Below, one piece after another: positions 1,119-36,012 of a stretch of 64,000 nt of DNA. Made by a program: the position numbers and the translations under genes. The stretch is from Actinomycetota bacterium (GTDB lineage: Bacteria; Actinomycetota; Thermoleophilia; Solirubrobacterales; 70-9), in NCBI GenBank assembly GCA_018268575.1, contig JAFDWF010000208.1:1540-65539 (forward strand), in the 5' to 3' direction. Below the pieces are notes generated by a model that was not told the origin of the DNA, did not search any database, and saw only the letters and a program-made list of their open reading frames with translations. Every line of letters starts with the position of its first letter. The first letter of the stretch is position 1.

Positions 1119-1131
1119 CGCAGGCCGAACG

Positions 1132-5322: not shown

Positions 5323-5332
5323 GCGAAGAAGA

Positions 5333-18925: not shown

Positions 18926-20527
18926 CTACCTACCGGTCTGTTCGTAGGTGTGCTGGTACTGCGTCTTTTCGCCGGTGCCGTAGATCGATTCGAAGGTGCC
19001 TTGCGCGTTGCAGGGTGGGGTCGGCGCGCCGGCGGTGCCCGACTGGCCGCCGAAGGCGTACTGCTTGACGTGGTTGAGAAGTTCTTCGGCTTCTTTGTGG
19101 AGTTCTTCCTGCGTCAGTTCGGTCGTTTCTTCTTTTTGCGTTTCGGTGTTGAATTTCGTCCTCGTCTTCGGGATGCGTTCGAGGAATGCTGACGATTCGG
19201 CGGTGGTCGGGTTCAGGGTCACCGAGCCGCCCGCCGTGCACTGACGCGTGTCGTAGCCGGGCAGCGAGCCGTTCTTCAGCAGCTCGGCCCAGCCGGGCGG
19301 GCTGTAGGGGCTGTTGCGGTTGTTGGCCAGCCGGGTCGGATAGGTGGAGAGCGTTTCGGCGGTGATCGGGCCGATCACGCGCAGGTAGTGCTGGCCGTTC
19401 ACCAGGCGCGCGTGGAAGGTCGTGGCGAGGTTGCCGAAGGTCGCGGCGACGTCCTTCTTGTAGAGACCGAGGCCGGTGACCAAGGGGTTCAGGTTGCGGA
19501 CGAGCGGTTCCGAGGCCCGCAGCAGCGGCGGGAAGTCGTCGCGGAAGAGCTTGCGCAGGGCCGAGAAGCCGCTCGGCGCCTCCTTCTCCACCGCGGGCAG
19601 CGCTTCGAAGAGCTGCTTCGTTTCCGGCGCCAGCTTGCCGAAGGCGACCAGCGTCGGCGAGAGTTCTTCGGCCACCGGCACCAGCTGCCTGGAGAGCGGG
19701 TCGGCGTTTTCGGCGAAGCCCTGCAGGCGGGCGATGGTGAGGCGCGACTCGTCCTGGAAGGTCGGGAAGGCGCGGAAGAGGGCTTCGATGTCCTGGTTGC
19801 GCGCCGCCGTCGTCTTGAACAGCTCGTTGGAGCTGCGGATCAGGTCGGCGAGCTGGCCTTCGCGGCCGCGCAGCGATTCGAACGTCTTCGCCCCGTTGCT
19901 GAACAGCTGCGCGACCGCGACCTTCTGGCTGTTGAGGACGCGGAAGAGGTTTTCGAATTGCTGGAAGGTCGGTTCGAGGTTGCCGATCGCGTAGGAGAGG
20001 TTCTGGCCCTGTCCTTCGATCGCCACCGCCGCTTCCTGCATCCAGGTCTGGAAGGCGCGGCGGGTACGCGGGTCGAAGGCCTGGAAGATCTCGTCGAGCT
20101 GCACCGATTCGGTCACCTGCGCCGCCGGCAGCGTGGCGCCGTCCTCGAGCGGCGGTTCGCCGCTCGAGCCCGGGGAGAGTTCGACGTAGGTCTCGCCGAG
20201 CAGCGTCTTCGTCCGCAGCATCGCCCGGGTCGAGGCGGGCAACGGCGCGTATTTGTCGTCGATGTTCAGCAGCGCCATCGCTTCCTTGCCCTTGGGCCCC
20301 AGTTCGATGCTTTCGACTTTGCCGACGTCGACGCCGGAGATCCGCACGTCGGACTGTTCGGCCAGCTGCGAGGCCTCGGTGAACGGCACCTTGACCTGGT
20401 AGCTCCTCGCTTTGAACGGGGTCGGCCCGCCGAAGGTGATCCAGAGGAAGAGCAGGATCCCGAAGCAGGACAGGGCGAAGGCGGTGATCGCGAGCAGCTG
20501 CGTGGTGCTGGGGGCGCGCTTGCTCAT
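18926..20527 (-). CDS. MCE/MlaD-family protein (6th of 6)
   Basis: 533 aa. An N-terminal TM segment is followed by an MlaD domain ('VRISGVDVGKVESIEL', 'LRTKTLLGETYVELSPG'). The start overlaps the upstream stop. Confidence 0.9.
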   Translation of the reverse strand: MSKRAPSTTQLLAITAFALSCFGILLFLWITFGGPTPFKARSYQVKVPFTEASQLAEQSDVRISGVDVGKVESIELGPKGKEAMALLNIDDKYAPLPASTRAMLRTKTLLGETYVELSPGSSGEPPLEDGATLPAAQVTESVQLDEIFQAFDPRTRRAFQTWMQEAAVAIEGQGQNLSYAIGNLEPTFQQFENLFRVLNSQKVAVAQLFSNGAKTFESLRGREGQLADLIRSSNELFKTTAARNQDIEALFRAFPTFQDESRLTIARLQGFAENADPLSRQLVPVAEELSPTLVAFGKLAPETKQLFEALPAVEKEAPSGFSALRKLFRDDFPPLLRASEPLVRNLNPLVTGLGLYKKDVAATFGNLATTFHARLVNGQHYLRVIGPITAETLSTYPTRLANNRNSPYSPPGWAELLKNGSLPGYDTRQCTAGGSVTLNPTTAESSAFLERIPKTRTKFNTETQKEETTELTQEELHKEAEELLNHVKQYAFGGQSGTAGAPTPPCNAQGTFESIYGTGEKTQYQHTYEQTGR

Positions 20528-21969
20528 TCTTCCTTTTCCTTCGATTCGCAGTGGCCGGATTCGGTCTTGAACGGGACCGGGATTTCCGTCTTGCGGGGAA
20601 CGTTCACCAGGTTGAGAAGGGTTTCGAGGTACGGCTTCCCAAGGCTGCGTTGGCTTGCCGCGAGGCCGTACCCGAGGTCCGCGCCGGTGCAGCTGATCAT
20701 CAGGATGCTGCGCAGCGCCGGGCCACTCGCGTCCTGGAGGCTGAAGGCGCTGTTCAGGTTGTGGTTTGCCCAGGGCAGGTAGAAGAGGTAGCTCTGCGCG
20801 GCGCCCTTCGGCTTGTAGGCGAGCTCGTTGAAGAACGAGTTGAGGCCGCCGAGGCTGTTGCCGAAGCTGGTGACGGTCTTTTCCAGCGGTTCGGAGCCGC
20901 GCCTGGCGGCGCTCAACAGCGGCCGGATTTCGCGGGTGAAGGGCCGCACGCCGTCCTTGATCGGCGCGGTCGTTTCGCGGAAGAGCTTCTCGGTCGCCTT
21001 GAAGGCCGGGGTCGAGGCCTGCGCCTGGGGGATCAGCTTGGTCAGCGTCGGCAGCGCCACCCGGGAGAATTCGTTCGAGCTCGCCAACCCTTCCCCCGCC
21101 GTGCGCAGCGTCTCCGGGAACCGTTCGAAGGCTTCTTCGAGCGCCCGCTGCTGGTTGGCGAAGCTGCCGAGCGCCTTGTCGGATTCGCTGACGAAGCTGC
21201 GCACCTGGGCGTCGTGCCTGCCCAGTTCGGTGGTCAGCTCGCCGAAGTCGTGGATCACCTTGGCCAGCGCTTCGCGCCGTTCGGCGATCGGCTTGTTCAG
21301 CTTGGCGACGTACTCGACGAAGGGCGCGAAGCGGCGCAGCGCGTTGCCGAGCTGCTTGCCGCGGCCGCCGATCCCCTGCGCCCCGCCCGCGACCAGCAGC
21401 TGGATGTACTGGCGGGTGTCGGCGTCGAGGCTGGCGAGGAACTGGTCGAGCTGGACGTTCGGTTCGGTCTGCGAGAGCCCGAAGACGTGCCCTTCCTTCA
21501 CCTCGCCGGTGCCGCTGCCCGGTTCGACCTCGACGATCATGTCGTTGAGCCCGGTTTTCGGCCGCAGCAGGAACTGCGCGTCGGGGTGGATCAGTTCCAT
21601 GTACTTCGGCTCGATCTCCATCCCGACCACCGCGTGGCCGTCTTCGAGGCTTACCGAGGCGACCTTGCCGATCTGGATCCCGGCGATGTCGACGGCCTGG
21701 CCCTGGCCCGGGGTGACCGCCTGGGCGGTGGTGAACTCGGCCGAGATGTGGTCGAATTCTTCACCGACGACGGGGAGCCACGACGGCAGCGACGCTTTCT
21801 GCTGGGTGAAGATCCCGAGCATCATCACGATCCCGACGAAGGCGAGGACGAGGATCGCGATCGTGTCGGTGCGGTGGCCGCGCGCCTGCCGGCTGATCCA
21901 GGCGCGGAAGTGGCCGAGGCGGCTGCGCCGTTCCGGGGTCGGGGTGGGTCTCGGCGCCTGGGCGCTCAA
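20524..21969 (-). CDS. MCE/MlaD-family protein (5th of 6)
   Basis: Trimmed to TTG 21969 (TTGA overlap with the upstream stop). It has a TM segment 'IAILVLAFVGIVMMLGIF' and an MlaD block 'VDIAGIQIGKVASVSL'. Confidence 0.85.
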   Translation of the reverse strand: MSAQAPRPTPTPERRSRLGHFRAWISRQARGHRTDTIAILVLAFVGIVMMLGIFTQQKASLPSWLPVVGEEFDHISAEFTTAQAVTPGQGQAVDIAGIQIGKVASVSLEDGHAVVGMEIEPKYMELIHPDAQFLLRPKTGLNDMIVEVEPGSGTGEVKEGHVFGLSQTEPNVQLDQFLASLDADTRQYIQLLVAGGAQGIGGRGKQLGNALRRFAPFVEYVAKLNKPIAERREALAKVIHDFGELTTELGRHDAQVRSFVSESDKALGSFANQQRALEEAFERFPETLRTAGEGLASSNEFSRVALPTLTKLIPQAQASTPAFKATEKLFRETTAPIKDGVRPFTREIRPLLSAARRGSEPLEKTVTSFGNSLGGLNSFFNELAYKPKGAAQSYLFYLPWANHNLNSAFSLQDASGPALRSILMISCTGADLGYGLAASQRSLGKPYLETLLNLVNVPRKTEIPVPFKTESGHCESKEKEE

Positions 21970-23483
21970 TGGACCACTCCGGCGGTCGAGGGGGAGGCGG
22001 GGCCGACCTGCCCGAGGCCGCCGTTCACGTCCGGAACCGGGTTCGTGTAGCAGCGCACTTCGGGCTTGAACGGGGGCTGGGCGCCGAGCTGAGGCTGCGT
22101 CCCCAGCGGGTTTTCGGCGACGTGCGAGTAGTTGATCTTGTCGCTCAGCTGATTGCCGTGGACGTTCGGTTCGCCGACCAGGATCGGGCCGGCGGCGATC
22201 TGCGCGTGAAGCATCGGCCCATTGCCGTCGTAGTTCTGAGCAGCGCCGGCGAAGTTGGTCAGGTCGTAGAGGAATTCGCGGTAGTTCGGCTGGCCGGTGC
22301 TGAACCGGTCTCCGATCACCTCGTTGCCGGTCGGCACCAGCACCTTCGAGGTGCAGAGGCTGAGCCGGTTGATCTGCGGCAGCGTGTTCGCCTTGCCCGC
22401 CTGCGCCACCCCGGCCAGGCCCGGCGTCGATTCGGCCAAGAGCTTCGCCGTGCCGCCGGCCTCCTTGCCGGAGAGCAGCGGGCGGACCTGGGCGAGCCAC
22501 GGTTTCGAGGCGCTGATCAGGCCGGGCAGCTCGGCCACCGCCGGGGTCAGCTCGATCGCGTAGGTGCGCAGCGGCGGCAGCGACTTGTCGAGGCTGACGA
22601 GGGAGCTGTGCGCGGTCTTCAGCGTCGGCGCCAGCAGGTGGACCGTGGTCGCCAGGTTTTCCGACTGGTTGGCGAGCGCCCCGGTGAAGGTGTCGAAGTT
22701 TTCGATCAGCCCTTCCAGGTCCGCCTGGTTGGCGGCGAAAGCGGATGCGGTGCGGGCCGTCCCGGCGACCATCCGGGCGAGGTCGCCCGGTTCGGTCCCG
22801 GTCAGCGCCTGGGTCACCTGGGCGCTGTACTTGCCGGCTGCGCCGCCGTACTGGAAGGCCCGGTTCAGCGCTTCGCCACCGGAGAGCCCGTGCACCTGGG
22901 GCAGCTGGCCGAGATCTTCGGCGGCGGTCGGTTCGTGGGTCAGCGCGGTGCCGTAGCTCTCCAGCAGCCGGCCGAGGTCGGCGCGGACCGGCGACTGCAG
23001 CGCGGTCAGCACTTGGTCGATCTGCACCGCGGTGGAGGTGTGACTGACCGGGATCGTCCCGCCACTCGCCAGTTCGGGCGAGCTCGGGCTGCCCGGGTCG
23101 AGTTCGACGAAGTAGTTGCCTTCGAGGAAGATCCGCGGCCGGATCGAGGCGAAGGCGTCCTCGTGGATCGGCCTGCCGGTGTCGTCGACGGTGAAGGTGA
23201 CCGTGGTCGCGTCGCCGTCGCGTTCGGAGCCGATCACTTTGCCGACTTCCACCCCCGCGATCCGCACCGGCGATTTCGGCGCGATGTTGGCCGAGTTGGC
23301 GAAGGTCGCCTTCAGTTCGTAGCCGTAGCTGGTGAAGGGGATGTGTTTGGTGAAGGCTATGTAGGGGCCGATCGTGAAGACGAGGATGAAGATCACCGCG
23401 ATCAGCCAGTTCGGCACCCGCTCGCGCCCGCGGCGGCGCGGCTTCCTCCCCGGGGCGGCTCTCTTCGGCGCGGGCGTGCTCAT
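21966..23483 (-). CDS. MCE/MlaD-family protein (4th of 6)
   Basis: 505 aa with a TM segment 'WLIAVIFILVFTIGPYIAF' and 'VRIAGVEVGKVIG'. Confidence 0.9.
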   Translation of the reverse strand: MSTPAPKRAAPGRKPRRRGRERVPNWLIAVIFILVFTIGPYIAFTKHIPFTSYGYELKATFANSANIAPKSPVRIAGVEVGKVIGSERDGDATTVTFTVDDTGRPIHEDAFASIRPRIFLEGNYFVELDPGSPSSPELASGGTIPVSHTSTAVQIDQVLTALQSPVRADLGRLLESYGTALTHEPTAAEDLGQLPQVHGLSGGEALNRAFQYGGAAGKYSAQVTQALTGTEPGDLARMVAGTARTASAFAANQADLEGLIENFDTFTGALANQSENLATTVHLLAPTLKTAHSSLVSLDKSLPPLRTYAIELTPAVAELPGLISASKPWLAQVRPLLSGKEAGGTAKLLAESTPGLAGVAQAGKANTLPQINRLSLCTSKVLVPTGNEVIGDRFSTGQPNYREFLYDLTNFAGAAQNYDGNGPMLHAQIAAGPILVGEPNVHGNQLSDKINYSHVAENPLGTQPQLGAQPPFKPEVRCYTNPVPDVNGGLGQVGPASPSTAGVVH

Positions 23484-24934
23484 TTGCCGCCGCCTTCCGA
23501 TCCGGATTCGCCGCCCTTGCTTTCTTCCTGACCGCCCTTGACTTCGACGGTCGAGGTGCTGAAGGTCTTCGGCGCTGGGCCGATCACGGTCTTGCCGCGA
23601 ACGTATTCCGCGTTCCCCGCTTCACAGCCGCGCGCCTGGCCCGGCGCCCCGGTCGCGGGCAGCGGGTTGTAGTGCAGGTGGTTGCGCGGTTCAGGCCCGT
23701 TGGCCGGCGCCGCCGCTTGGCCGGACTCGCTGTTCGGGCCTTCCGGCGGGGCGAAGGAGATGAAGTTGAGCCAGCGGCCGTACTGGTTCCCCTGGCCCGA
23801 GGCGCTGGCGATCTGATCGAAGGTTTCGGCGAAGTAGTTGCAGGTGGTCTGGGCGGGGGTGATGTAGCGGAGCGGGGCTTCGAGGTTCTTGTTCAGGTCG
23901 GTGAGCAACTGCAGCCCGGTCATCGTGCCTTCGGCGTCCTGGAAGGCGACCAGCGCTTCCGCCGTCGGCAGCAGCTGGTTGTTCAGCACCGGCGAGTTGT
24001 TCAGCGCCGGGATTCCGGCGCGCAGCGATGCGGCGATGATCGGCGAGGTTTCCGCCAGCGCCTTGGCCCCCGGCCGCAGGGCGGTGAAGAAGCGTGCGGT
24101 GTCGTGCAGGAAGGGGTTGATCCGCGGCAGGCCGGCGTTGACCGTTTCCAGGGTCGGCGGGCCTTTTTCGATCGTTTCTTCGATGTAGGGGCTGGAGACG
24201 TGGGCGAAGGCGGCGAAGGTCTGGTCGAGGACGGCGAACATGCTCGCCTGCTCCTGGGCCACCGGGGCGACCGTCGCCGAGAGGTCCTCGAGCGCGCGGA
24301 AGAAGCCGCCGAAGTTCGTTCCCGGGGCGACCAGGGTCGCCGCCGCCGGTTCGCCTTCTTCGACCAGGCCGCGCAGCGCCCCGAGCGCCTCGTTCAGCTG
24401 CGGGCCGCGACCGGCGAGCGCGTTGCCGAAGCCCGCCAGGTTGCGCTGGATCGCCGTCCGCGTCGGCGCGTTGAACATGTCGAAGAATTTGTCGATGTCC
24501 CCCGGTTCGGGCTTCGCATAACGGACCGGGATCGTTTCGCCGGCCTTGAAGCCGACGGTCGAGCTGCCCGGGGTGATCTGCAGGTACTTGAGGCCGAGCG
24601 GCGATTTCGGCCGCACCTCGATGGTCGAGTCGTTGGGCACCGGTTCGGCGCTCTTGTCGAGGCTGAGGGTGATTTCGGCCTCGACTTTGCCGTTCTTCAG
24701 CTGCACCGGCACCACCGACTTGACCACGCCGACGCGGGCGCCGCCGATCCGCACCTCGTTCGCTTTGACCAGCGCGTCGGCGTTCGGCAGCCGCGCCTTG
24801 AGGTCGTAGGTGGAGACGAAGGGCAGCCCGTTGTTGGCGTTGTAGGCGAGGAAGACGGCGACGATGATCACCAGCACGGTCACCGCGCCGACCAGCACCG
24901 GGCTCACCGCGAGGCCGCCGTTGCGGTTCCTCAT
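23480..24934 (-). CDS. MCE/MlaD-family protein (3rd of 6)
   Basis: Trimmed to ATG 24934 (ATGA overlap). It has a TM segment 'VLVGAVTVLVIIVAVFLAY' and 'VRIGGARVGVVKSV'. Confidence 0.9.
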   Translation of the reverse strand: MRNRNGGLAVSPVLVGAVTVLVIIVAVFLAYNANNGLPFVSTYDLKARLPNADALVKANEVRIGGARVGVVKSVVPVQLKNGKVEAEITLSLDKSAEPVPNDSTIEVRPKSPLGLKYLQITPGSSTVGFKAGETIPVRYAKPEPGDIDKFFDMFNAPTRTAIQRNLAGFGNALAGRGPQLNEALGALRGLVEEGEPAAATLVAPGTNFGGFFRALEDLSATVAPVAQEQASMFAVLDQTFAAFAHVSSPYIEETIEKGPPTLETVNAGLPRINPFLHDTARFFTALRPGAKALAETSPIIAASLRAGIPALNNSPVLNNQLLPTAEALVAFQDAEGTMTGLQLLTDLNKNLEAPLRYITPAQTTCNYFAETFDQIASASGQGNQYGRWLNFISFAPPEGPNSESGQAAAPANGPEPRNHLHYNPLPATGAPGQARGCEAGNAEYVRGKTVIGPAPKTFSTSTVEVKGGQEESKGGESGSEGGGK

Positions 24935-26478
24935 CGTCCTTGCCCCAGGAGGTAGTTGAGCAGCGGTTCGGTGCCTTCGGCGCTCGTCGCTTCGCCCAGT
25001 TCCGGTTCGCCGGCGGCGGAGCCGCGCCGGGTCGGGGCCGTGCCTTCGGCCGAGTGGGCGGTGCCCAGCGTCGCGCCCGTGCCTGCCGGTTCCGTGCCAC
25101 CGTTTTCGGCGGTGAGGAGCCCGGCCTTTTCGCGCATCCGGTTGAGCAGCTCGACCAAGGCGCGGGCACTGGTTTTGGTCGGTTCGTTGGCCTGTGGACC
25201 GTGGTAGCGGGCCACGCAACCGCTGAACCCTTCGACGTTCGCTTCGTACTGCACACAGGTCGTCAGCGTCACCAGGGTGCGACCGAAGTGACCGAATTTG
25301 TCGAAGCCGTTGAGCGATGCCGCGGTGTTGTAGATCAGTTCGGTGAGGCCGTCCCAGCCACCGTTCTCCCTCAGGCTGACGAGGAGCTTCGCCAGTTCAC
25401 CCGTCGGCACTTCACCGGAGATCGCCAGGTTGCTCGCCTGCTTCACCACCGGAGTCGCTGCGGCGAAGACCGGGCCCGATTCTTCGCCCGCCTTGCCGAG
25501 GCTCTTTAGCGCCACCGTGGTCGCTTCCGAGAACGGGGTCAGCGTGCCGGTGGCGTCGGTCAGCGAGGGAGCGGCAACGCCGAGCTCTTCGAGCAGCGGC
25601 GTGCCCGCGTCGGAGAACGCCTTCAGGTTCACCATCGTCTGCCGGAACTCGGTCAGGAAGCGGGGGAACTTCTGCAGCGCCGCTTCCAGTTCGGGCCCGT
25701 GCGCGGCGGTCGCCCGGGCCGATTCGCCCGCGTGCGCGAGGAAGCCGACCACGCGTTCCTTTTCCAGCGTCAGCGGTTCGAGGATTTCCTGCGAGTCGGA
25801 GGCCAGCTGGGCGAGCTGGTCCTTCTGTTCGGTCAGCGTCTTGAACAGGAGGTCGACGTCGCGCAGGGTCGGGTTGGCCCGCTTGATCGTCGCTTCGAGG
25901 TCTTCGCCGCGGCCCGCCAGGCCCGCCCCGAGTTCGTTGAAGATCAGCCGGAAGCGCTGCGCGTAGGGGAGCGAGTTGATGTTGTTGATCAGGTCGGGGT
26001 CGACGCTGGTCGTGTTGCTGCCCAGCGGCAGCAGGTACTGGCCCGCGCCCGGTTCGCCTGCGGGGATCTGCTTCAGCGGCGGCGCCGGCTGCTGGCCCGG
26101 GGCCCGTGGCACGGTCGGCGTGCAGTTGACGTACTTCTCGCCGATCAGCGACTGCGGGCGGATTTCGCAGCTGGCGTCCTGGCGGAAGTCCTGGAAGCTC
26201 GGATCCGAGATTTCGAGCTCGATGATCGCCTTGCCGGGGACGTCCTTGAACTTGCCGTCTTCGATCGCGGTCGGTTCGCCCGGCAGCGAGACGCCGACCG
26301 ACTTGATTTCCCCGACGTTGGCGCCGGCGACGCGCACCTGCTCGCCGCTGACCATGAACGAGCCCTGGTCGAAGATCGCCCGCACGACGTAGCCGTTGCC
26401 CCCGCTGCCGCCCGCGATCAGGATGATCGCGACCACGATCGCCGCGACCACGGCGACCCCTGCGATCAGCTTCTTCAC
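24931..26478 (-). CDS. MCE/MlaD-family protein (2nd of 6)
   Basis: Trimmed to GTG 26478 (GTGA overlap). It has a TM segment 'LIAGVAVVAAIVVAIILIAG' and 'VRVAGANVGEIKSVGV'. Confidence 0.9.
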   Translation of the reverse strand: MKKLIAGVAVVAAIVVAIILIAGGSGGNGYVVRAIFDQGSFMVSGEQVRVAGANVGEIKSVGVSLPGEPTAIEDGKFKDVPGKAIIELEISDPSFQDFRQDASCEIRPQSLIGEKYVNCTPTVPRAPGQQPAPPLKQIPAGEPGAGQYLLPLGSNTTSVDPDLINNINSLPYAQRFRLIFNELGAGLAGRGEDLEATIKRANPTLRDVDLLFKTLTEQKDQLAQLASDSQEILEPLTLEKERVVGFLAHAGESARATAAHGPELEAALQKFPRFLTEFRQTMVNLKAFSDAGTPLLEELGVAAPSLTDATGTLTPFSEATTVALKSLGKAGEESGPVFAAATPVVKQASNLAISGEVPTGELAKLLVSLRENGGWDGLTELIYNTAASLNGFDKFGHFGRTLVTLTTCVQYEANVEGFSGCVARYHGPQANEPTKTSARALVELLNRMREKAGLLTAENGGTEPAGTGATLGTAHSAEGTAPTRRGSAAGEPELGEATSAEGTEPLLNYLLGQGR

Positions 26479-27875
26479 GGGCCGCCCACCTGCTCGGAGG
26501 GGTTGCATTCGGAGCTCGAGACGGCGCTGCCGCCGTGCGGCGGGTTGACGTAGGGGGCCGAGTTGTCGCCCGGGGCCTGCGCGGCGCCCCCCGGGCAGCG
26601 GGTCGGCGTCGCCGCCGGGTTGCCGAAGGGCACGAACTGTTCGGACTTCGGGATCGCCGTCAGCGTCCCGCCTTCGTCCTTGAAGACGTTCTCCAGCGCG
26701 GTCGCGCCGCGCACGTAGTTGCCATTGCCGTCGTAGTAGCCGCTGACCTGGCCGAGCTTCGAGATCCCGTTGAAGAAGTCGGGCGTGTAGGAGCGGATGA
26801 AGTTCAGCTGCGGCTGGAAGTCGGCGATCGCGGTCTGGGCGTGCGGGAAGGTGGTCGAGGCGAGCTGCTGGACGCTCGGCAGGATCGCCAGCAGTTCCCG
26901 CGAGTCGTTGTGCGGGCCGGGACGGTCCAGCGCCAGGGTGAGGTTGCGGGTGAAGGGGATGAACTTGGTCAGCACCGGGCGCAGTTCGGCGAGGAAGGGC
27001 GCCAGGTTCTTGGTCGCGGGCTTGGCCGTGTTGATCAGCGGTTCGACGTCGTCGAGCGCGGCGCGCAGGTTGACGAAGGTGGTGTTCGCCTGGCGCAGGA
27101 CCGGGGGCAGCTCCTGCAGCGATTCGTCGAGGGCGACGTTCTGGGTGTTGATCGCGTCGAAGGCGGTGGTCGCGTTGCCGATCGCGCTCGAGAGCTGGGA
27201 GCCGCGGTTGGCGACCGCCGTGGTCAGCTTCGCCGAGCTGACCAGGAACCGCGAGAGCAGCTGTTCGTCGGCGTTCAGTTCGGCGGCGAAGTTGGTGGCC
27301 CGGTTCAGCGCCGTGCCGAAGTATTCGTAGCTTTCGTTCGCTTCGTTGCCGCGCCCGGCGTAGATCTCCCCGTTGCCCTTGATGAAGTTCTGCAGCCCTT
27401 CGCGCACCTTCGGCGGGAAGCTGTTGAAGAGCTGGTCGATGTCGACGGGAGTCGTGGTCGAGGAGAGGCCGAGCGTCGCCCCTTCTTCCAGCGACGGGCT
27501 GCTGTTCGGGCCGGGGCTGATCGAGAGGTAGTGGTTGGCGACCCCGGAGAGCGAGGTCGCCCGGATCACCGCGGTCGTCCCTTCGTGCAGTTCCTGTTCG
27601 ACTTCGACGTTGACTTCGGCCAGATTTTCCGGGCTCAGTTCGATGCTCGAGACGGTCCCCACCGGGGAGCCGCCGATCAGCACCTGGTTGTCGTTGACGA
27701 GCTGGCCCGCGTTCTGGAACATGAACGTGTACTTGTGGCCACCGCCGCCGGTGAAGAGGAGGATCGCAAGCACGATCACGACGACCAGCAGCGCCCCGAT
27801 CGCCGCCAAGCGGGCTGGGGTGGTCCCTCGGCTCGGAGCCGAGCGTTTCTCCTCGCCTTGGGGTTTCGCAGCCAC
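26475..27875 (-). CDS. MCE/MlaD-family protein (1st of 6)
   Basis: 466 aa with a GTG start, a TM segment 'LAAIGALLVVVIVLAILLF' and 'VLIGGSPVGTVSSIEL'. Confidence 0.9.
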   Translation of the reverse strand: MAAKPQGEEKRSAPSRGTTPARLAAIGALLVVVIVLAILLFTGGGGHKYTFMFQNAGQLVNDNQVLIGGSPVGTVSSIELSPENLAEVNVEVEQELHEGTTAVIRATSLSGVANHYLSISPGPNSSPSLEEGATLGLSSTTTPVDIDQLFNSFPPKVREGLQNFIKGNGEIYAGRGNEANESYEYFGTALNRATNFAAELNADEQLLSRFLVSSAKLTTAVANRGSQLSSAIGNATTAFDAINTQNVALDESLQELPPVLRQANTTFVNLRAALDDVEPLINTAKPATKNLAPFLAELRPVLTKFIPFTRNLTLALDRPGPHNDSRELLAILPSVQQLASTTFPHAQTAIADFQPQLNFIRSYTPDFFNGISKLGQVSGYYDGNGNYVRGATALENVFKDEGGTLTAIPKSEQFVPFGNPAATPTRCPGGAAQAPGDNSAPYVNPPHGGSAVSSSECNPSEQVGGP

Positions 27876-27924
27876 GGGTCGTCGCTCTGCCCATCCCCGG
27901 CCCCCTCGACCCTGCGGACGGGCG

Positions 27925-27950
27925 CGGGAATCGTATCCGAGGGATTCCCG
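27925..27950. promoter_or_regulatory. 8-bp inverted repeat cgggaatc-N10-gattcccg in the 190-bp mce / secreted-protein divergent region
   Basis: Read from the sequence. It is only a candidate operator. Confidence 0.2.
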
Positions 27951-28065
27951 GCCAAACGGCGCCTGAGCGGGGACTTAACTGGAAATCAACGCGCTACTCT
28001 GGCGCCACGGACCGGTTGGGGAAGTGGGAGGCGCGTCCGCAAATTTTCGATCCAGGAGCGACTCA

Positions 28066-28854
28066 ATGCGCAAACGTTTCACTCTGATCGCGGGCCTCGC
28101 CGCCGTGGTGGCGATCGCGATCCCGGTTTCGGCCGCGATCGCCGGGGAAACCGTGACCGGGCCCGACGGCAACACGCAGTCGATCGAAGCGACGATCACG
28201 CCAAAGGCCCTCTACAAGAAGACCTTCTCGCCGGCGACGCTGAGCGTCGACGTCAAGACCGGCTCCTCGAGCGGCGGGATCCCGAGCCCGGCCGTCCACG
28301 ACGTGATCGATTTCGACAAGAACCTGACGCTGGCGACCAAGGGCCTGCCGACCTGCAACGCGTCGCAGCTGCAGAACACCTCGACCGAAGTCGCCGAAAA
28401 AGCCTGCGGCAAGGCCAAGATCGGCTCCGGCGAAGCGCAGACGCTGCTGCCGCTGGGCACCCTCTACAACGAGCCGACCAAGGTGACCGCCTTCAACGGC
28501 GCCCCGCAGGGCGGCAAGCCGGTGGTGCTGCTGCACGCCTACGGCACCTCGCCGGTGCAGACCACGCTGGTCTTGGTCGGCACGGTCAGCAACCTGAACA
28601 AGGAAGGCTACGGGCCGCGCCTCGACGTGACGATCCCGCCGCTGGCCGGCGGCGTCGGCGTGATCACCGACTTCCAGGTCAAGATCAACAAGACCTGGAC
28701 CTACAAGGGCAAGAAGATGAGCTTCATCTCGGCCAAATGCCCGGCCTCGAAGAAGCTCAAGTACCGCGGCGCCTTCACCTACAAAGACGGCACCACGATC
28801 GAAGCCACCCACAGCCAGGCCTGCGCGCCGAAGGCCGAACCGAAGAAGAAGTAG
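28066..28854 (+). CDS. Secreted four-Cys protein, paralog 1 (unassigned family)
   Basis: ATG 28066 has AGGAG upstream. The signal-peptide-like N terminus is 'MRKRFTLIAGLAAVVAIAIPVSAAIA'. It aligns end to end with the ORFs at 32249, 33013, 33759 and 42084 (GLPxC-x16-C, FNG..G.P, two Cys pairs). Confidence 0.8.
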   Translation: MRKRFTLIAGLAAVVAIAIPVSAAIAGETVTGPDGNTQSIEATITPKALYKKTFSPATLSVDVKTGSSSGGIPSPAVHDVIDFDKNLTLATKGLPTCNASQLQNTSTEVAEKACGKAKIGSGEAQTLLPLGTLYNEPTKVTAFNGAPQGGKPVVLLHAYGTSPVQTTLVLVGTVSNLNKEGYGPRLDVTIPPLAGGVGVITDFQVKINKTWTYKGKKMSFISAKCPASKKLKYRGAFTYKDGTTIEATHSQACAPKAEPKKK

Positions 28855-28890
28855 TCCGCCGACGCGAGGGTGCTGCCGTAACCAGACGTC

Positions 28891-31800
28891 CTAGACGTCG
28901 AAGCGCGGCAGCACCCGCGCCAGCGGGCGCGGCAGCCACCAGACGCGGTCGCCGAGCAGCAGCATCAGGGCCGGCAAGAGGACGATCCGCACCACGGTGG
29001 CGTCGAGCACCACCGCGACGGTAAGCCCGATCCCGAGCTGGCTCACCGTCGCCACCGGTGCGGCGGCGAAGACGATGAAGACGGCGAGCATGATCGCCGC
29101 GGCGCCGGTGATCACCCGGGCCGTCTTCTCCAGCCCGAAGCGGACCGCGGTCGCGTTGTCCTCGCCGGCGTCGTAGCGCTCCCGCATCCGGGTCAGCAGG
29201 AAGACCGCATAGTCGATCGAGAGGCCGAAGACGACGGCGAAGATCATGCAGGCGCCGACCGCGTCGACGTAGTGGTGGCCGCCCAGCGGCCAGCTCGCGG
29301 GCACGTGGAAGAGCAGGGTGAGGATGCCGAAGGCGACCGCCACCGTGAGCAGGTTGAGGCCGACCGCGATCGCCGCCAGCGGCAGCGCCCGCAGCACCAC
29401 CACGAGGACCAGGAAGGTGACCAGGGTGATCGTCGCGATGATCCAGGGGATCCGGTCGCGGGTGATCTGGTTGTAGTCGTTCAGCTGCGCGGCGCTGCCC
29501 GCCACCCCGGTCGACAGTTCCGCATCTTGGCCCAGTTCGCCCGCCGCGGTGGCGAGCTTCTGGTTCAGTTCGATCGAGCCGGGCGAGTTGAATTCGTACT
29601 TCGAGATCACCAGGATCGAGGCCGCCTGGCCGCCGTGGTTCAGGTCGATCGTCGCCCCCACCTTTTCGCGCGTCGCGGGCGGCGCCCCGTCGAGCGCCGA
29701 GAGGACGAAGTAGCCGGAGTTGAAGAGCCCGGGCGAGGCTTCCTGGACCTTGCCCGCACGACGGCGGATCTTCGACTTGCCTTCGAGCACCTTGACGCTC
29801 GCTTCCGCCAGCCCGGTTTCCAGCGGTTCGGATTTCGGCACCCCCGCGGCAAGGCTCTGTTCCAGCGCTTCGGCGCCGCCGACCAGCTTGCCGAGGCCGG
29901 TGGCAAGCGCGGTGGCGCCACTGCTCAGGCGTTCGATCCCCTTGCCCAGGCCGCCCGCCGCCGTGGCCAGCTTGTTCGCCCCGTGGGCGAGCGTGTTCGT
30001 CCCTTTGTGGATCTTGTAAAGGCCTTCGATCAGCCGGCCCATACCACGCCCGACACGGTGCAATTCGCGAACCGACGAGTAGATGAAGGACGACGTCCTC
30101 TGATTGAGTTCGGCATCCTCGCCCAGCCGTTCCCGCAGCCCTTCGAGTTCGGCGGGAAGGCCCGCGTAGCCAGCTTCGTAGGGTGCCCCGGTCGCCGGGT
30201 CGGTGCCGGTCACCGCCGCCAGCGCGCCCTGCACCGATTCGAGCGTCGCCGCCGCGGCCGGGTCGCCCGGCGCCGCTTCCTTCAGCTTCGCTTCCGCAGC
30301 CTGCAGCTTCTCCACGCTTGCCGCCACCGGTGCGAGGAGGCGTGGCAGCGTTTCGTTCTGGTCGGCACGCAGCGCGCGCAGCTGCTCGCGCTGCGCTTTT
30401 CCACCGTTGTAGTGGAGGGAGCTCATGATCGAATTGATCCCGCTGACCCTGACCTGCTGGGCGCCGATCGCCGCTTCCAGCTCGGCTTCGACCAGTTTTT
30501 CGGAGCCTTCGGCAAACCGTTCCAGGGCCTTGATCGCCCGCTCGCTGCCGCCCGCCGCCCGGGCCAGGCCGCGGGCGATCAGCTGCGCGCCTTCGGTCGC
30601 GTGTTCGGAGCCGAGCGCGAGGAGGCCGGCGCCGTCGCTCGCTTCGCCGATCCCCGCCCGCAGTGCCCCGACCCCGCCCGCGGCGACGTTCAGTTCCTTG
30701 CCCAGGTGGCCGAGCTGCTTGACCGGGCCGATGTTCCCGTGCGAGGAGAGCACCGCGTTGCCGAGTTCCTGCAGCGGTTCGACCCGCTTGGTCGCCGCCT
30801 GCGGGCCGATCACCAGGTTCACCCCTTCGAAGGAGGCGACCTTGTGCTGGAAGTGTTCGATCGCCGCCATGCTGCCGGGGTCGGTGATCGGCCCGTTCGC
30901 GTTGGCGGCGACGACCTGGAAGGGCGCTTCCCAGCCGGGGCCGATCGTGTCGGCGATCAGTTCGGCGTCCTTGCGCGCGGGGGCGTCCCTGGCGAGCTGT
31001 TCGGTGCTCGGCGGGCCGAGCTTCAGCCCCATCGCGGGCGCCGCCAAGGCGAGCAGGATCGCCCCGATCACCACCGCCGCCACCAGCGGTCGGCGCAGCG
31101 CCGCGTTGACGAAGCGCATCACGCCGGAGCGCTCGGCGCTCGCCGGCCGGCCGATCCGCCAGCGGTTCACGTTCTCCCCGGCCAGGGTGAGGATCGCCGG
31201 GCCGACCAGGGTCGCCACGGTGACGCTGAGGACGACCACCATCGCCACCGTCCCCGCCAGCGAGATCAAGAGCGACCCGGGCAGGATCAGCAGCGAGACG
31301 AGCATCGAGAGCAGCAGGGTCGAGCCCGCGAAGGCGACGGTCCGCCCGGCGTGTCGCCTGGTTCTTCGCGCCGCCTCGACCGGCTCGGCCCCGGTCGCCA
31401 GCTCCTCGCGGAAGCGCGAGACCATCAGCAGGGCGTAGTCGACCCCCAGCGCCAGCCCGATCATCGTGCAGACGGTCAGCGCGAAGGCGTCGATCGAGAA
31501 CCAGGAGGTGAGGAAGTAGAGGATCCCACGCGAGGAGAGCACCGTGATCGCGCCGAAGCCGAGCGGGATCACGGCCGCGATCGGCGAGCGGAAGACCAGC
31601 AGCAGGACGATCAGCAGGATCGGCAGGGCGACCAGCTCGTCGTGCTCGGCGGAGTCGATCGATTCCTGCTGCAGGGCGCGGGAGAGAGTGGCGAAGCCGG
31701 TCTGGGTCACCGCCACCGGCGCTTTCACCGATTCGTTCAGCAGTTCTTCCAGGTGCGGCACGGTTTCGTTGACCGCGGTTTTCGTGCCGACCGGGAAGTT

Positions 31801-32205
31801 GGCGATGATCAGCGCCTTCCCCGGGCTCGGCCGCAGCGCCCCGACCGAGCCGTTGTCCCAAGGGGAAAGCGTCGACACCCCCGGTTCTTCGCGCAGCGCT
31901 TCGACCAGCTGCGGGCCCTGCTTTTCCACCGCGGCCCGCGGGCCGCGCAGCAGGATCACGAACGGGGTCGAGGGCCCGAAGTGCTCTTCCAACATCGCGT
32001 TGGCTTCCGCCGAGGCGCTGCCGGGGACGTCGAGCGTGGTCGGGTCGAGCCGCGAGGTGACGCCGGTGCCGATCACCGCCAGGGCGGCGAGGACGATCGC
32101 CGCCGCGAGCAGGATCTCGCGCGGGTGCCGCAGCAGCCACGGCTGCCGCCTCCGGGAACCCGAGGCCCGGGACCGCTCCCCTCCCCTGCTCCTGCTGCTT
32201 CCCAC
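28891..32205 (-). CDS. MMPL-family (RND superfamily) transporter with large XXXLXXG heptad-repeat insert
   Basis: 1104 aa. Two MMPL-type TM bundles are present ('GLALGVDYALLMVSRFREE', 'FGLSIDYAVFLLTRMRE'). They flank an insert of about 350 aa containing 'TNTLAHGANKLATAAGGLGKGIERLSSGATALATGLGKLVGGAEALEQSLAAG'. The GTG start at 32205 is uncertain. Confidence 0.85.
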   Translation of the reverse strand: MGSSRSRGGERSRASGSRRRQPWLLRHPREILLAAAIVLAALAVIGTGVTSRLDPTTLDVPGSASAEANAMLEEHFGPSTPFVILLRGPRAAVEKQGPQLVEALREEPGVSTLSPWDNGSVGALRPSPGKALIIANFPVGTKTAVNETVPHLEELLNESVKAPVAVTQTGFATLSRALQQESIDSAEHDELVALPILLIVLLLVFRSPIAAVIPLGFGAITVLSSRGILYFLTSWFSIDAFALTVCTMIGLALGVDYALLMVSRFREELATGAEPVEAARRTRRHAGRTVAFAGSTLLLSMLVSLLILPGSLLISLAGTVAMVVVLSVTVATLVGPAILTLAGENVNRWRIGRPASAERSGVMRFVNAALRRPLVAAVVIGAILLALAAPAMGLKLGPPSTEQLARDAPARKDAELIADTIGPGWEAPFQVVAANANGPITDPGSMAAIEHFQHKVASFEGVNLVIGPQAATKRVEPLQELGNAVLSSHGNIGPVKQLGHLGKELNVAAGGVGALRAGIGEASDGAGLLALGSEHATEGAQLIARGLARAAGGSERAIKALERFAEGSEKLVEAELEAAIGAQQVRVSGINSIMSSLHYNGGKAQREQLRALRADQNETLPRLLAPVAASVEKLQAAEAKLKEAAPGDPAAAATLESVQGALAAVTGTDPATGAPYEAGYAGLPAELEGLRERLGEDAELNQRTSSFIYSSVRELHRVGRGMGRLIEGLYKIHKGTNTLAHGANKLATAAGGLGKGIERLSSGATALATGLGKLVGGAEALEQSLAAGVPKSEPLETGLAEASVKVLEGKSKIRRRAGKVQEASPGLFNSGYFVLSALDGAPPATREKVGATIDLNHGGQAASILVISKYEFNSPGSIELNQKLATAAGELGQDAELSTGVAGSAAQLNDYNQITRDRIPWIIATITLVTFLVLVVVLRALPLAAIAVGLNLLTVAVAFGILTLLFHVPASWPLGGHHYVDAVGACMIFAVVFGLSIDYAVFLLTRMRERYDAGEDNATAVRFGLEKTARVITGAAAIMLAVFIVFAAAPVATVSQLGIGLTVAVVLDATVVRIVLLPALMLLLGDRVWWLPRPLARVLPRFDV

Positions 32206-32248
32206 CCGTGGTAGTTTGGCGGTCAGGGGCTACGGGAGGAGCGAACCT

Positions 32249-33016
32249 ATGCGGAAGAATGTGTTAAGGACGTCAGTCCTGACCGTCGTCGCGCTGTTGG
32301 CGATGAGCGGAGCGGCATTGGCGATCGTGTTACGAACCGGTCCGATCGAAGTCGTCGGCGAAGGCGGCTTCTCGCCGACGACGCTGCCGAAACAGCACAC
32401 GGCACCGATCATCCTGCACGGCGAAGGCCGGATCGGGACCACCGACGGCTCGCTGCCGCCGATCCTGAAGACGCTCACGGTCTGGTTCGACAAACACGGC
32501 GCGGTGGTGACGAAAGGCCTGCCCTACTGCACCAAAGGCAAGCTGGCGGCGACCACCACCGCGGTCGCGCGCAAGGTCTGCGCGGGCTCGATCGTCGGCG
32601 AGGGATCCGGCACCGCCCTGATCGCCTTCCCCGAACAGAAGCCGTTCAAGGCGAGCTCGCCGATCACGATCTTCAACGCGGCGCCGCACGACGGCAACCC
32701 GACCGTGCTCGCCCACGCCTACCTGAGCGTGCCCGCGCCGACCACCTACATCGTCCCGGTGGAAATCCAGAAGGTGCACAACGGGCCGTTCGGCTTCCGC
32801 ACCGAAGCGCAGATCCCGAAGATCGCGGGCGGGTCCGGGATTCCCCTCGAAGGACGCCTGACCATCGGCAAAAAATGGACCTACAAGGGCAAGAAGCTGA
32901 GTTATGCCAACGCCAGCTGCCCGAGCGGCAAGTTGCAGGCGAAAGTGGAAACCGAATTCACCGACACGACCCGGCTCAGCGGCGTGATCCTCAAACACTG
33001 CACGGGAGTCAATTGA
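32249..33016 (+). CDS. Secreted four-Cys protein, paralog 2
   Basis: ATG 32249 has GGGAGGAG upstream. The signal-like N terminus is 'VLTVVALLAMSGAALA'. It carries the paralog-family blocks. Confidence 0.8.
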   Translation: MRKNVLRTSVLTVVALLAMSGAALAIVLRTGPIEVVGEGGFSPTTLPKQHTAPIILHGEGRIGTTDGSLPPILKTLTVWFDKHGAVVTKGLPYCTKGKLAATTTAVARKVCAGSIVGEGSGTALIAFPEQKPFKASSPITIFNAAPHDGNPTVLAHAYLSVPAPTTYIVPVEIQKVHNGPFGFRTEAQIPKIAGGSGIPLEGRLTIGKKWTYKGKKLSYANASCPSGKLQAKVETEFTDTTRLSGVILKHCTGVN

Positions 33017-33777
33017 GGCGCCGGTTCGCAGCGGTCGGGCTCGCCGCGGTGGCGGCGGCGCTCGTCCTGGCCGCCGCGGCGGTCGCGGTCAGCACCCAGA
33101 TCGGCAACCTGAAGGTCAGCGCCACGGCGGAATTCATGCCGCGCGCCTTCCCCGCAAAGGGCACGCTGCCCGCCCGGTTCAGCAGTATCGTGCGGATCAA
33201 GACCGTGAACGGCGAACAGCCGCCGCCGCTGAAGACGCTGATCTTCGAATTCGACAAGCACGGCAAGCTGAACTTCAAGGGCATGCCCACCTGCACCGTC
33301 GCCCAGCTCGAAGGGACGACGCCGGCGGAGGCGCGCAAGCGCTGCGCCGGGGCGCTGCTCGGCACCGGCATCGGCAAGGCGCGGGTCGAATACCCGGGCA
33401 AGGCGCCGTTCAAGATCAGCTCGCCGATCTCGATCTTCAACGCGCCGCCGGAAGGGGGCGAGCCGACGCTGATCGCCCACGCCTACGAGACCGTGCCCTC
33501 GCCGCAGGCGCTGCTGGTCCCGTTCACGATCGAAAAGATCAACCACGGCCGCTACGGCTACCGGACCGAGCTCGAACTGCCGCCGATCGCCGAAGGCCAC
33601 GGGGCGGCGATCTTCGCCGAAGCCTCCTTCGGCCGCACTCGAAAAGAACACGGCCAGGAGGTCGGCTACGTCGAAGCCGAATGCTCCGGCGGCCGCCTGC
33701 AGGTCCACGGCGAGATGATCTTCGCCGAAAGCCACCTCGAATCGCTGCTCACCTCGCCATGTCACACCGAAGGCTGA
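33013..33777 (+). CDS. Secreted four-Cys protein, paralog 3
   Basis: TTG 33013 overlaps the upstream stop (TTGA). It has a hydrophobic N terminus and the paralog-family blocks. Confidence 0.75.
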   Translation: MRRRFAAVGLAAVAAALVLAAAAVAVSTQIGNLKVSATAEFMPRAFPAKGTLPARFSSIVRIKTVNGEQPPPLKTLIFEFDKHGKLNFKGMPTCTVAQLEGTTPAEARKRCAGALLGTGIGKARVEYPGKAPFKISSPISIFNAPPEGGEPTLIAHAYETVPSPQALLVPFTIEKINHGRYGYRTELELPPIAEGHGAAIFAEASFGRTRKEHGQEVGYVEAECSGGRLQVHGEMIFAESHLESLLTSPCHTEG

Positions 33778-34544
33778 GAAGGGGCCTCAGGCGCAGCCTC
33801 CCCTTCCTCGCGATCCTGCTCGCCTTCGCCATCGCCGCCGCCACCGCGAGTGCCACCGCGATGGTCGAAACGCGGGAACTGCGGATCGAACTGAACGCCG
33901 CCTTCCAGCCCCGCGACCTGCCGGTCCACAGCTTCGCCCCGGTCCGGTTCGAGGGCTCGCTCGAGATCTCAAAGCCCGGCGGCGGAGTGCCCCCGGCGCT
34001 GCAGCAGATCGTCCTCGACTTCGACCGCGACGGCCGCCTCGACGTCTCCGGCCTGCCCACCTGCGCGCCCGAATCGATCGCCCAGGCGAGCGTCGACGAA
34101 GCGCGGGCGATCTGCAAGGGCGCGATCGTCGGCACCGGCGAGATCGAAGCCCTGGTCGCCCTCCCTTCCGGCCCGGTCCCGACCAGCTCGCCGCTCACCC
34201 TCTTCAACGGACCGCGCCTCGAAGGCAAGCCGACCGTGATCGTCCACGCCCGCACCACGGTGCCGACGCAGCAGACCTACGCCTTCACCGTGCCGATCGA
34301 AAAGCGCCGCGGCGAATTCCGCTACCGGGCGACCGTGAATATCCCGCCGCTAGCCGGCGGCCTCGGCGCGGTCACCAAGATCAGCGTCAAGGTCGGCCGC
34401 CGCTACAGCGCCGGGGGGGTGAAGCGCAGCTACGTCGCCGCCCGCTGCAGCGACCACATCCTGCGCAGCCACGGCGCCTTCAGCTTCGCGGGCGGCCTGG
34501 TGATCGAAGGCGTCGGCCTGGAAAAGTACTGCGCCCAGCGCTGA
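33759..34544 (+). CDS. Secreted four-Cys protein, paralog 4
   Basis: ATG 33759 overlaps the upstream gene by 19 nt. The signal-like N terminus is 'LPFLAILLAFAIAAATASA'. It carries the paralog-family blocks. Confidence 0.75.
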   Translation: MSHRRLRRGLRRSLPFLAILLAFAIAAATASATAMVETRELRIELNAAFQPRDLPVHSFAPVRFEGSLEISKPGGGVPPALQQIVLDFDRDGRLDVSGLPTCAPESIAQASVDEARAICKGAIVGTGEIEALVALPSGPVPTSSPLTLFNGPRLEGKPTVIVHARTTVPTQQTYAFTVPIEKRRGEFRYRATVNIPPLAGGLGAVTKISVKVGRRYSAGGVKRSYVAARCSDHILRSHGAFSFAGGLVIEGVGLEKYCAQR

Positions 34545-34596
34545 GCCCCAGGCGGCCGCGCACCGAGCGGCGCCCGCTTCCTATAATCCGCCGTTC

Positions 34597-34669
34597 GGGC
34601 CGTTAGCTCAGTTGGTAGAGCAGGAGACTCTTAATCTCAAGGTCGTAGGTTCGAGCCCTACACGGCCCA
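34597..34669 (+). tRNA. tRNA-Lys (anticodon CTT)
   Basis: I folded a 73-nt cloverleaf by hand: acceptor GGGCCGT/ACGGCCC, D arm GCTC-AGTTGGTA-GAGC, anticodon loop CTCTTAA, and T arm GTAGG-TTCGAGC-CCTAC. No CCA is encoded. Confidence 0.9.
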
Positions 34670-34683
34670 CTCGCTCCGGTCGG

Positions 34684-35100
34684 TCAGTCCTCGATCTGGA
34701 TCGGATCGGCTCCCGTGAGATCTTCCTCTTGGCTGACGATGTCCCAGGCCATCGCCGCCGCCTCCTTGAACGTCACTCTGCCGGCGACCACCCTGCGATG
34801 CCCGATGGTGTGTCCGTGGTACCCGTGAATCGGATCGAAGTCCCGAGCCCAGTACTCGCGACCGTCCAAGACCAGGTAGTAGGCATATTCGAGGCGATGG
34901 ACATGGCTGCCCCGGATTTCGACCACCCCGCTGACCTGAAGGTTTGCGCGCTCGGTCATATTGAGCGTCAGGAGTATCCGGCCTCGTTTCTCTCCCGATC
35001 CCGCCTCGATGGAATAGACGGGGTGCTCGTTGTGATGCAGGGAGAGTTCCTTGCACTCGCGCCTTCGCTCCTCCATGTACTCGCCGATCGAGGCCGCCAT
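34684..35100 (-). CDS. Hypothetical protein, possibly DUF6516/TumE-like toxin
   Basis: 138 aa in a lower-GC islet. 'RLEYAYYLVLDGREYWARDFDPIHGYHGH' resembles the Y-x-Y-H...R-x-D-N-x-P-H-H core of DUF6516. This is a memory-based and tentative match. Confidence 0.45.
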   Translation of the reverse strand: MAASIGEYMEERRRECKELSLHHNEHPVYSIEAGSGEKRGRILLTLNMTERANLQVSGVVEIRGSHVHRLEYAYYLVLDGREYWARDFDPIHGYHGHTIGHRRVVAGRVTFKEAAAMAWDIVSQEEDLTGADPIQIED

Positions 35101-35159
35101 CGGATCGAAGCGTACCCATAGGCAACCGGTGCCTGGCCCGAGTTGTCACGCCCGGCGCG

Positions 35160-35447
35160 CTAGTGAAGCGCGAGCGCCCGGTCCACGCCATCCACGAACG
35201 CCGAGGGGGCGGGGCCATTACCCTGCATGCGCTCGACATCGAGGAAAAGGCTGGCCCACAGGTGCCGGGCGAAGCCGGGTATGGCGGCTACTGTCGGATC
35301 ATCACACCGATGGGCAAGCATGAACTGCTCTGAAGACAGGCCGTAGCGCTCCTCGAGTTTCCCGAGAGCGCGGGAGAGCGAATCGATGTCGTAGTAGTTC
35401 ATGTAGCTGCCCTTCATCATCGGCCAAGCTCGGGGGTCCTTGAGCAA
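35160..35447 (-). CDS. Hypothetical small protein, antitoxin-like
   Basis: At most 95 aa; internal ATGs are possible starts. 'LGKLEERYGLSSEQFMLAH' resembles the E-x-(K/R)-Y-G-M-S-S-E-E-F helix seen in many small antitoxin-like proteins. It lies upstream of, and on the same strand as, 34684..35100. Confidence 0.4.
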   Translation of the reverse strand: MLKDPRAWPMMKGSYMNYYDIDSLSRALGKLEERYGLSSEQFMLAHRCDDPTVAAIPGFARHLWASLFLDVERMQGNGPAPSAFVDGVDRALALH

Positions 35448-35932: not shown

Positions 35933-36012
35933 CCGTTCGCGCGGGCGCCCGAACTCGACCGGCGCGCCGCCTTGACCTCCAGCCGCCGCGGGGCGGCGCC
36001 GCTTGGTACCTC

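Follow-up and report, generated by a model that had tools for sequence, protein, structure and literature searches.

Mce and MmpL envelope transporters have been studied almost entirely in mycobacteria, where the mce operons share one MceG. In canonical actinobacterial mce loci there are two yrbE genes, and the gene for the ATPase is often unlinked (PMC1810536). In MmpL5 a coiled coil of 196 amino acids (aa) is essential, and it has been modelled as a 13-nm tube, with the Ig-like domain of MmpS5 stabilising it (PMC12501195). Here we describe a stretch of 64,000 nucleotides (nt), hereafter the window, from a soil actinomycetote of the Solirubrobacterales, 70-9 (assembly GCA_018268575.1, contig JAFDWF010000208.1, positions 1,540-65,539 of the forward strand). 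It contains an mce operon, a gene for an MMPL transporter and genes for secreted proteins with four cysteines, here called P. An initial annotation had proposed that the three gene sets form one envelope lipid-trafficking system. From the gene neighbourhoods of related loci we conclude that P and MMPL very likely constitute one system that is MmpS/MmpL-like, whereas Mce is probably a separate transporter that, by analogy with described Mce systems, would use YrbE/MceG encoded elsewhere; this supply in trans is assumed.

Genes were called by a GC3-based method and then scanned for Pfam and NCBIfam families. The mce operon, the MMPL gene and the secreted paralogs were all found where the initial annotation had placed them, and so were the two short divergent gaps it had pointed out, 27876-28065 (between mceA and P1) and 32206-32248 (between MMPL and P2). 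The features of the MMPL and P genes are:

28891-32205, minus strand: RND-type MMPL transporter of 1104 aa, matching PF03176 twice (217 bits); mean predicted local distance difference test (pLDDT) score of 83.4 in the AlphaFold2 (AF2) model
29737-30729, minus strand: stalk insert of the MMPL (residues ~493-823) in periplasmic domain 2, with long antiparallel helices, xxxLxxG heptads and a TIGR03057 match
28066-28854, plus strand: P1, 262 aa, divergent from mceA and convergent with MMPL, present in only part of the lineage
32206-32248, no strand assigned: divergent MMPL-to-P2 spacer of 43 nt, with TGGTAGTTT (extended -10-like, plus strand) and GGGAGGAG (P2 Shine-Dalgarno)
32249-33016, plus strand: P2, 255 aa, E 2.5e-124 to the family profile
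33013-33777, plus strand: P3, 254 aa, the most conserved member
33759-34544, plus strand: P4, 261 aa, with an alternative start at 33681
42084-42896, plus strand: P5, a fifth and more divergent paralog, E 1.2e-40 to the family profile, divergent from the Rieske gene

The stop codons of the convergent P1 and MMPL genes face each other at a distance of 36 nt. The transporter is an MMPL protein, as sequence matches to MmpL3/4/5 in the PDB span both of its halves and its AF2 model, built on an alignment of 39 sequences, was matched by Foldseek to MmpL structures with a TM-score of 0.8 (normalised to the target). An insert of ~330 aa is located between transmembrane helices 7 and 8. In the model it consists of helices at residues 493-530, 533-647, 649-666, 683-769 and 775-823, the long ones flanking a short tip, and the 115-residue helix is by itself ~17 nm long. 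The pLDDT of the stalk is mostly about 80-93, with a dip to about 60 near residues 760-780. The xxxLxxG heptad consensus was also seen in alignments A5/A6. The best Foldseek matches were the MmpL5-MmpS5-AcpM complex (9mvz_D, E 1e-30) and the MmpS4-MmpL4 complex with a 'long' coiled coil (9syt), and the top matches were entries in which the coiled coil is resolved. As modelled, the stalk is of the known MmpL4/5-type architecture, ~130 aa longer here, and the initial view of it as unusual was not sustained. Nor is the protein atypically large, as had been stated; among the best 150 representatives at 50% clustering, the majority are 1060-1140 aa long and can be aligned over their whole length. 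A scan of the neighbouring genes gave no MmpS match, and no cognate MmpS (PF05423) gene was found beside MMPL. The annotated GTG start of MMPL lies 3 nt from the MMPL-to-P2 spacer, so the mRNA would be either leaderless or start further downstream; many homologues are annotated ~20 aa shorter.

The P paralogs are 30-33% identical to P1. Their signal peptides have AXA sites, and four cysteines are invariant. They did not match any Pfam or NCBIfam family. An NCBIfam match of P1 to BagZ/FevE (E 0.004) was dismissed, since it covers the signal peptide. A profile search returned at least 1604 homologues, none of them with a Pfam domain. Only a few have a named source, in each case Solirubrobacterales or Actinobacteria metagenome-assembled genomes (MAGs). 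P3 is 75-87% identical to 25 homologues, and its AF2 model (pLDDT 88.6) is all-beta following the signal helix. Assignment of P3 to a fold failed: against the PDB, Foldseek gave a best E of 6e-3 with TM-scores of at most 0.36, and a profile search of PDB sequences gave nothing below E 0.25. With a length of about 250 aa, a signal peptide, four conserved cysteines and an all-beta predicted fold as shared traits, P is, on sequence grounds, a new and previously unnamed family. The initial annotation had counted four paralogs; these four are at the place given, but the count was incomplete because of P5.

Loci of relatives were examined with flanks of ±10 kb. A P3 ortholog alignment was used to find 27 genome loci (L001-L027), while a metagenome scan anchored on MMPL, and therefore blind to P, gave 56 loci that were annotated with hidden Markov models. 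When compared with the window MMPL, identities form two sets, one of at least 52% and the other of at most 47%. Group A was defined as MMPLs that can be aligned over their full length and are 50-66% identical to that of the window. Upstream of all 19 of these MMPLs, at a distance of at most 112 nt, is a divergent P gene. The spacer between MMPL and P2 is near-invariant in both sequence and length; it measures 42-43 nt in 23 of 26 loci, the 59% clade included.

The MMPLs of a paralogous group, group B, are about 1020-1040 aa long. In each of the 23 group B loci with adequate flanking sequence, a P5-like gene lies on the MMPL strand no more than 600 nt away, in an operon-like arrangement, and Mce genes were found in none of the group B loci. 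The arrangement varies: P may be followed by MMPL 38-93 nt on, MMPL-P units may be in tandem (L059), or MMPL may be followed by an overlapping open reading frame (ORF) for a 161-aa secreted protein and then by P (L056). The gene for this 161-aa protein (L056 13041-13526, plus strand) overlaps with the stop codon of MMPL; it is possibly a third component of the operon.

The P-P-MMPL unit without mce was found in at least three other contexts, namely L035/L036, L093 and L018. In the clade with 53% MMPL identity (L035, L036 and L093) two P genes are divergent from MMPL and there are no mce genes. Downstream of MMPL these loci have a dodecin gene, together with a PAPS reductase gene in L036, or a gene for another secreted protein (L093). 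L018 has an MMPL 80% identical to that of the window and retains P2-P4, while its downstream genes are LigA, SurE, TruA and RpoA, with neither P1 nor mce. This arrangement may be a true rearrangement, or the MAG may have been chimerically assembled. Close to the junction in the same locus (1-5860), at about 5727-5790, there is a perfect inverted repeat of 20 bp. Six stalked MMPLs at 35-43% identity had neither Mce nor P genes within 10 kb.

Altogether, P tracks MMPL in both paralogous groups, in either orientation and in several neighbourhoods, whether or not mce is present, which is strong comparative evidence that P and MMPL are a functional pair. The genomic link of the P family to MMPL genes is, as judged from these neighbourhoods, new here.

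P5 is the exception to the adjacency with MMPL, being an orphan in the window. Its closest relatives are the P genes that accompany group B MMPLs. As an MMPL gene adjoins the Rieske gene at the place corresponding to P5 in the 57-59% clade, P5 may be what is left of an MMPL-P unit that was lost. In the window P5 is followed by genes for a 445-aa secreted protein without a Pfam domain, a lactonase-like beta-propeller and a sulfatase.

The mce operon occupies 18926-27875 on the minus strand. Its genes and the region 5' of it are:

18926-20527, minus strand: mce gene 6, the last of the operon, 533 aa, with N-terminal transmembrane helix and MlaD domain; PF02470 E 2.6e-19, TIGR00996 131 bits, best PDB sequence match Mce1B (E 1e-11)
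20524-21969, minus strand: mce gene 5, about 460-480 aa as its start is uncertain; PF02470 E 9e-10; 4-nt overlap with each neighbour
21966-23483, minus strand: mce gene 4, 505 aa; PF02470 E 4.8e-14
23480-24934, minus strand: mce gene 3, 484 aa; PF02470 E 2.2e-12
24931-26508, minus strand: mce gene 2, about 525 aa; PF02470 E 7.4e-9; no PDB sequence match at E<=1e-3
26475-27875, minus strand: mce gene 1, the first of the operon, 466 aa; PF02470 E 1.9e-9, PF11887 E 1e-9
27876-28010, minus strand: conserved region 5' of mceA, ~125-135 nt, with invariant blocks GCGCGTTGATTTCC.GTTAAGTCCCCGC and TCGGATACGATTC in an alignment of 21 sequences

Each of the six genes encodes an N-terminal transmembrane helix and an MlaD domain (PF02470, E 2e-9 to 3e-19). 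The genes are translationally coupled by 4-nt overlaps at five of six junctions, and they therefore form one operon. The proteins score 67-131 bits against TIGR00996 (Mtu_fam_mce), which is under the curated cutoff of 140.5, and they match the Mce1 chains in the PDB at sequence level with E values of only 1e-5 to 1e-11. A one-to-one match to Mce1A-F could not be established; Mce1B was the best match for four of the six, LetB/YebT for one, and one had none. By its sequence features this is a divergent operon of the actinobacterial type with six genes, and by analogy with Mce1 (8FEE) the proteins most likely form a heterohexameric MCE tunnel. An MlaE/YrbE permease or an Mla-type ATPase was not found in the cluster or among the window genes scanned across 363-59205, the four genes at 59171-63866 lying outside the scan. 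The description of the operon as permease-less is borne out to that extent. No yrbE or mceG was found in the flanks of about 40 related loci either, where there is no room for an MlaE-type gene.

The region 5' of mceA is conserved in lineages with and without P1. It matched no Rfam family, and no covarying RNA structure was found in it (covariation term +0.44; a double change in only 4 of 19 pairs). Its conservation suggests that it is probably the promoter/operator of mce, for an as yet unnamed regulator. On inspection by eye, the -10-like elements TAGTTTGGCG of P2 and TACTCTGGCG of P1 are alike. An operator shared by both divergent regions was likewise considered by eye and rejected, and there was nothing in common with the mce side. 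Scans for consensus promoters and terminators gave matches at chance level.

The gene order in the genome loci found with P3 is mce, (P1), MMPL, P2, P3, P4. A conserved three-part neighbourhood, which the initial annotation had suggested looking for, does exist: of 22 informative genome loci, 21 have mce, MMPL and the paralogs side by side, as do 15 metagenome loci, down to an MMPL identity of 50-52%. Thirty-six related loci retain MMPL followed by mceA-F. Among group A, 15 loci had enough downstream sequence, and in every one of them MMPL is directly followed by six mce genes; many also have a further P gene past mceF. P1 is missing in L017, L019, L023-L027 and most group A metagenome loci. 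In genomes without it MMPL is directly 5' of mceA on the same strand, with 124-145 nt between the MMPL stop and the mceA start. In L023, a single MAG, a gene for a 383-aa P-loop ATPase-like protein ('...GLRGVGKTVLL...'; 4491-5642, minus strand) separates MMPL from mceA; it is inserted at the site where other genomes hold P1 or nothing.

The block of genes for Rieske protein, cytochrome b, MenG, polyprenyl synthase and TatC is conserved in the same loci as mce-MMPL-P. The order g36013-TatC-TatA-polyprenyl synthase-MenG is also kept in the genome loci found with P3, and all 15 group A loci that extend several kb upstream of the P genes keep the cytochrome bc-to-TatC block as far as the contigs reach. 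Since this housekeeping block is equally conserved, the synteny of mce, MMPL and P is background gene order and does not discriminate between explanations.

The reading we favour, and which we give somewhat better than an even chance, is that the region encodes two envelope transporters that are old neighbours: a module of P and MMPL, and an mce operon to which YrbE/MceG is supplied in trans. The initial idea of one three-part lipid-trafficking system is upheld for the link between P and MMPL, which recurs in independent arrangements and also without mce, and less so for the link to mce. The latter is weaker because the adjacency of mce and MMPL is no better conserved than that of housekeeping genes, is absent in L018, L035, L036, L093 and at the six distant MMPLs and interrupted in L023, and because mce has a 5' region of its own.

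Under this two-transporter reading, MMPL would be an exporter of the MmpL4/5 architectural type driven by the proton-motive force (PMF), and its ~330-residue antiparallel stalk would reach from periplasmic domain 2 into the cell wall, or through it, over a distance of at least ~17 nm. The P proteins would be secreted, disulfide-bonded, beta-rich partners dedicated to MMPL. They probably dock on the periplasmic domains or the stalk as an adaptor or stabiliser, or take lipid cargo, a putative role resembling that of MmpS or Rv0455c with MmpL4/5. Since there are no yrbE genes in the mce operon, it most likely relies on a YrbE/MceG ABC module encoded elsewhere in the genome. From adjacency alone, both transporters may serve the same lipid economy, one in export and the other in retrieval.

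Several observations weigh against two separate transporters. With neither yrbE nor mceG in the scanned parts of the window or in the ~40 related loci, the supply in trans is an assumption. Where P1 is missing, MMPL holds the exact position that yrbEAB has in canonical operons, 5' of mceA at 124-145 nt. Furthermore, mce is bracketed by members of the P family in many group A loci, and its adjacency to MMPL is retained in three of four group A subclades, which are a coarse grouping from a tree that included spurious long GC-rich ORFs. As for the module of P and MMPL, the group B loci are similar to one another, so that independent lineages are fewer than loci, and the role of P is drawn from adjacency alone, its fold matching nothing solved.

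The strong form of the initial idea is that Mce hexamer, stalked MMPL and P are one machine, in which MMPL replaces YrbE/MceG, the MCE tunnel is PMF-driven and P serves as adaptors or carriers. We regard this as unlikely. It would account for an mce operon without yrbE, for an MMPL gene in the yrbE position, co-directional with mceA and 124-145 nt from it in genomes without P1, for a cluster that is contiguous in 36 loci to 50% MMPL identity, and for P genes on both sides of mce in many loci; MCE proteins with partners other than ABC transporters also have a precedent in PqiA/LetA. However, the adjacent housekeeping block is at least as syntenic, mce retains a conserved 5' region of its own, and the junction between MMPL and mce is broken by an ATPase gene (L023) or by P1. 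The unit of P and MMPL is found without mce in L018, L035, L036 and L093, while mce is never near group B or the more distant stalked MMPLs. The solved MmpL4/5 complexes, moreover, are self-contained assemblies of MmpL and MmpS. That the Mce hexamer would be driven by or docked on the stalked MMPL, as an RND/PMF rather than an ABC engine, with P proteins joining the two, is decidedly unlikely; it stays open at this low probability because MMPL is at the yrbEAB position, there is no yrbE in the accessible sequence and P genes bracket mce.

It is highly doubtful that the P proteins belong to Mce rather than to MMPL, as exported accessory proteins functionally analogous to Mam/Mas. In favour of this reading, P1 diverges from mceA, and many group A loci have a P gene right after mceF, where mycobacteria have mam/mas (PMC1810536). 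Against this, P is beside MMPL in loci that have no Mce genes (23 of 23 in group B, and L018, L035, L036 and L093), and P2-P4, the best-conserved members, are tied to the start of MMPL by the invariant 43-nt spacer. P matched none of the Pfam families either, those associated with Mce included. Also very improbable is that none of the three gene sets is functionally related to another and that inherited gene order accounts for every adjacency: the whole ~25-kb block with cytochrome bc, menaquinone and Tat genes is indeed syntenic across group A, but inheritance fails to explain P beside a paralogous MMPL group in another orientation and other neighbourhoods, or the relocated P-P-MMPL units, and is contradicted for the pair of P and MMPL.

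The other genes neighbouring the cluster are housekeeping genes: tRNA-Lys, TatA/TatC, polyprenyl synthase, MenG/UbiE and cytochrome bc genes. In the Rfam scan, tRNA-Lys was the sole match. This tRNA-Lys(CTT) is located at 34597-34670, in the interval between P4 and g36013, the gene on the TatC side (34545-36012). The interval is ~1.5 kb in the window and about 0.15-9 kb in relatives (L003, L004, L009, L014 and L017), and it looks like an insertion hotspot. In the 1.3 kb past the tRNA in the window no convincing gene was seen. The gene at 36013-36819 (minus strand) adjoins TatC and encodes a 268-aa protein with a weak SurA_N_2 match. Its position is kept in all relatives, and the protein evolves fast, with 34-50% identity where TatC has 67-80%. 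The gene at 47653-48573 (plus strand) encodes a 306-aa protein with AbiEi-antitoxin-like and DUF559 domains, possibly a part of a defence or mobile element.

The public DNA runs that match the window were all soil metagenomes, sharing at most 29% of words. A single soil metatranscriptome run shared 6% of words; its contigs mapped in short pieces of low identity over all genes at a depth of 2-10, with many chimeric joints.

Full-text literature searches returned no description of a composite Mce-MmpL system or of the P partner family. The locus extends stalked MMPL pumps to a deep-branching actinobacterial lineage without mycolates. The search for the "missing" extracytoplasmic partners of MmpL4/5 is still going on, and the P family offers a concrete candidate. 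The locus also draws attention to an entire clade in which six-gene mce operons have no permease genes, which bears on whether MCE tunnels can run without an ABC transporter. The orphan Mce-associated genes omamA/B of M. tuberculosis, near mmpL11/mmpL3, are another loose co-localisation of both kinds of system.

The closest likeness of the P-MMPL module is to MmpS4/5-MmpL4/5 (and MmpL10) of mycobacteria. Both share the MMPL core and, inserted in periplasmic domain 2, an antiparallel coiled coil; in both, the transporter gene adjoins one for a small, beta-rich protein that has a hydrophobic helix at its N-terminus. The insert is, however, ~330 aa here and 196 aa in MmpL5, and it carries xxxLxxG heptads. 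P also differs from MmpS in its ~250 aa and two predicted disulfides, in not matching PF05423 and in having no fold match in the PDB. Furthermore, P occurs in 2-5 paralogous copies, and in group A its genes are divergent from MMPL rather than co-transcribed with it. The xxxLxxG heptads (TIGR03057) in a long extracytoplasmic helical hairpin are shared with YhgE/Pip and EsaA-type proteins of Firmicutes; the likeness is limited to the stalk repeat, as the membrane core of those proteins is ABC-2-like and not RND/MMPL.

The mce operon resembles actinobacterial Mce1-4 in its six tandem, coupled genes, each encoding an N-terminal transmembrane helix, an MlaD domain and a helical region. It differs from those systems (YrbEA/B, MceA-F, MceG and Mam) in that the locus has no yrbE or mam and has an MMPL or P1 gene 5' of mceA, and its Mce sequences are very divergent, with no correspondence to A-F. 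Like PqiAB(C)/LetAB of E. coli, which are a precedent in this respect, the MCE proteins are not beside an MlaE-type permease. The lineage of the window is taken to have a Gram-positive-type wall. PqiAB(C)/LetAB, on the other hand, belong to diderms and are homohexamers with several MCE domains and partners of the PqiA/LetA family, whereas the window has six single-domain paralogs and no PqiA-like gene.

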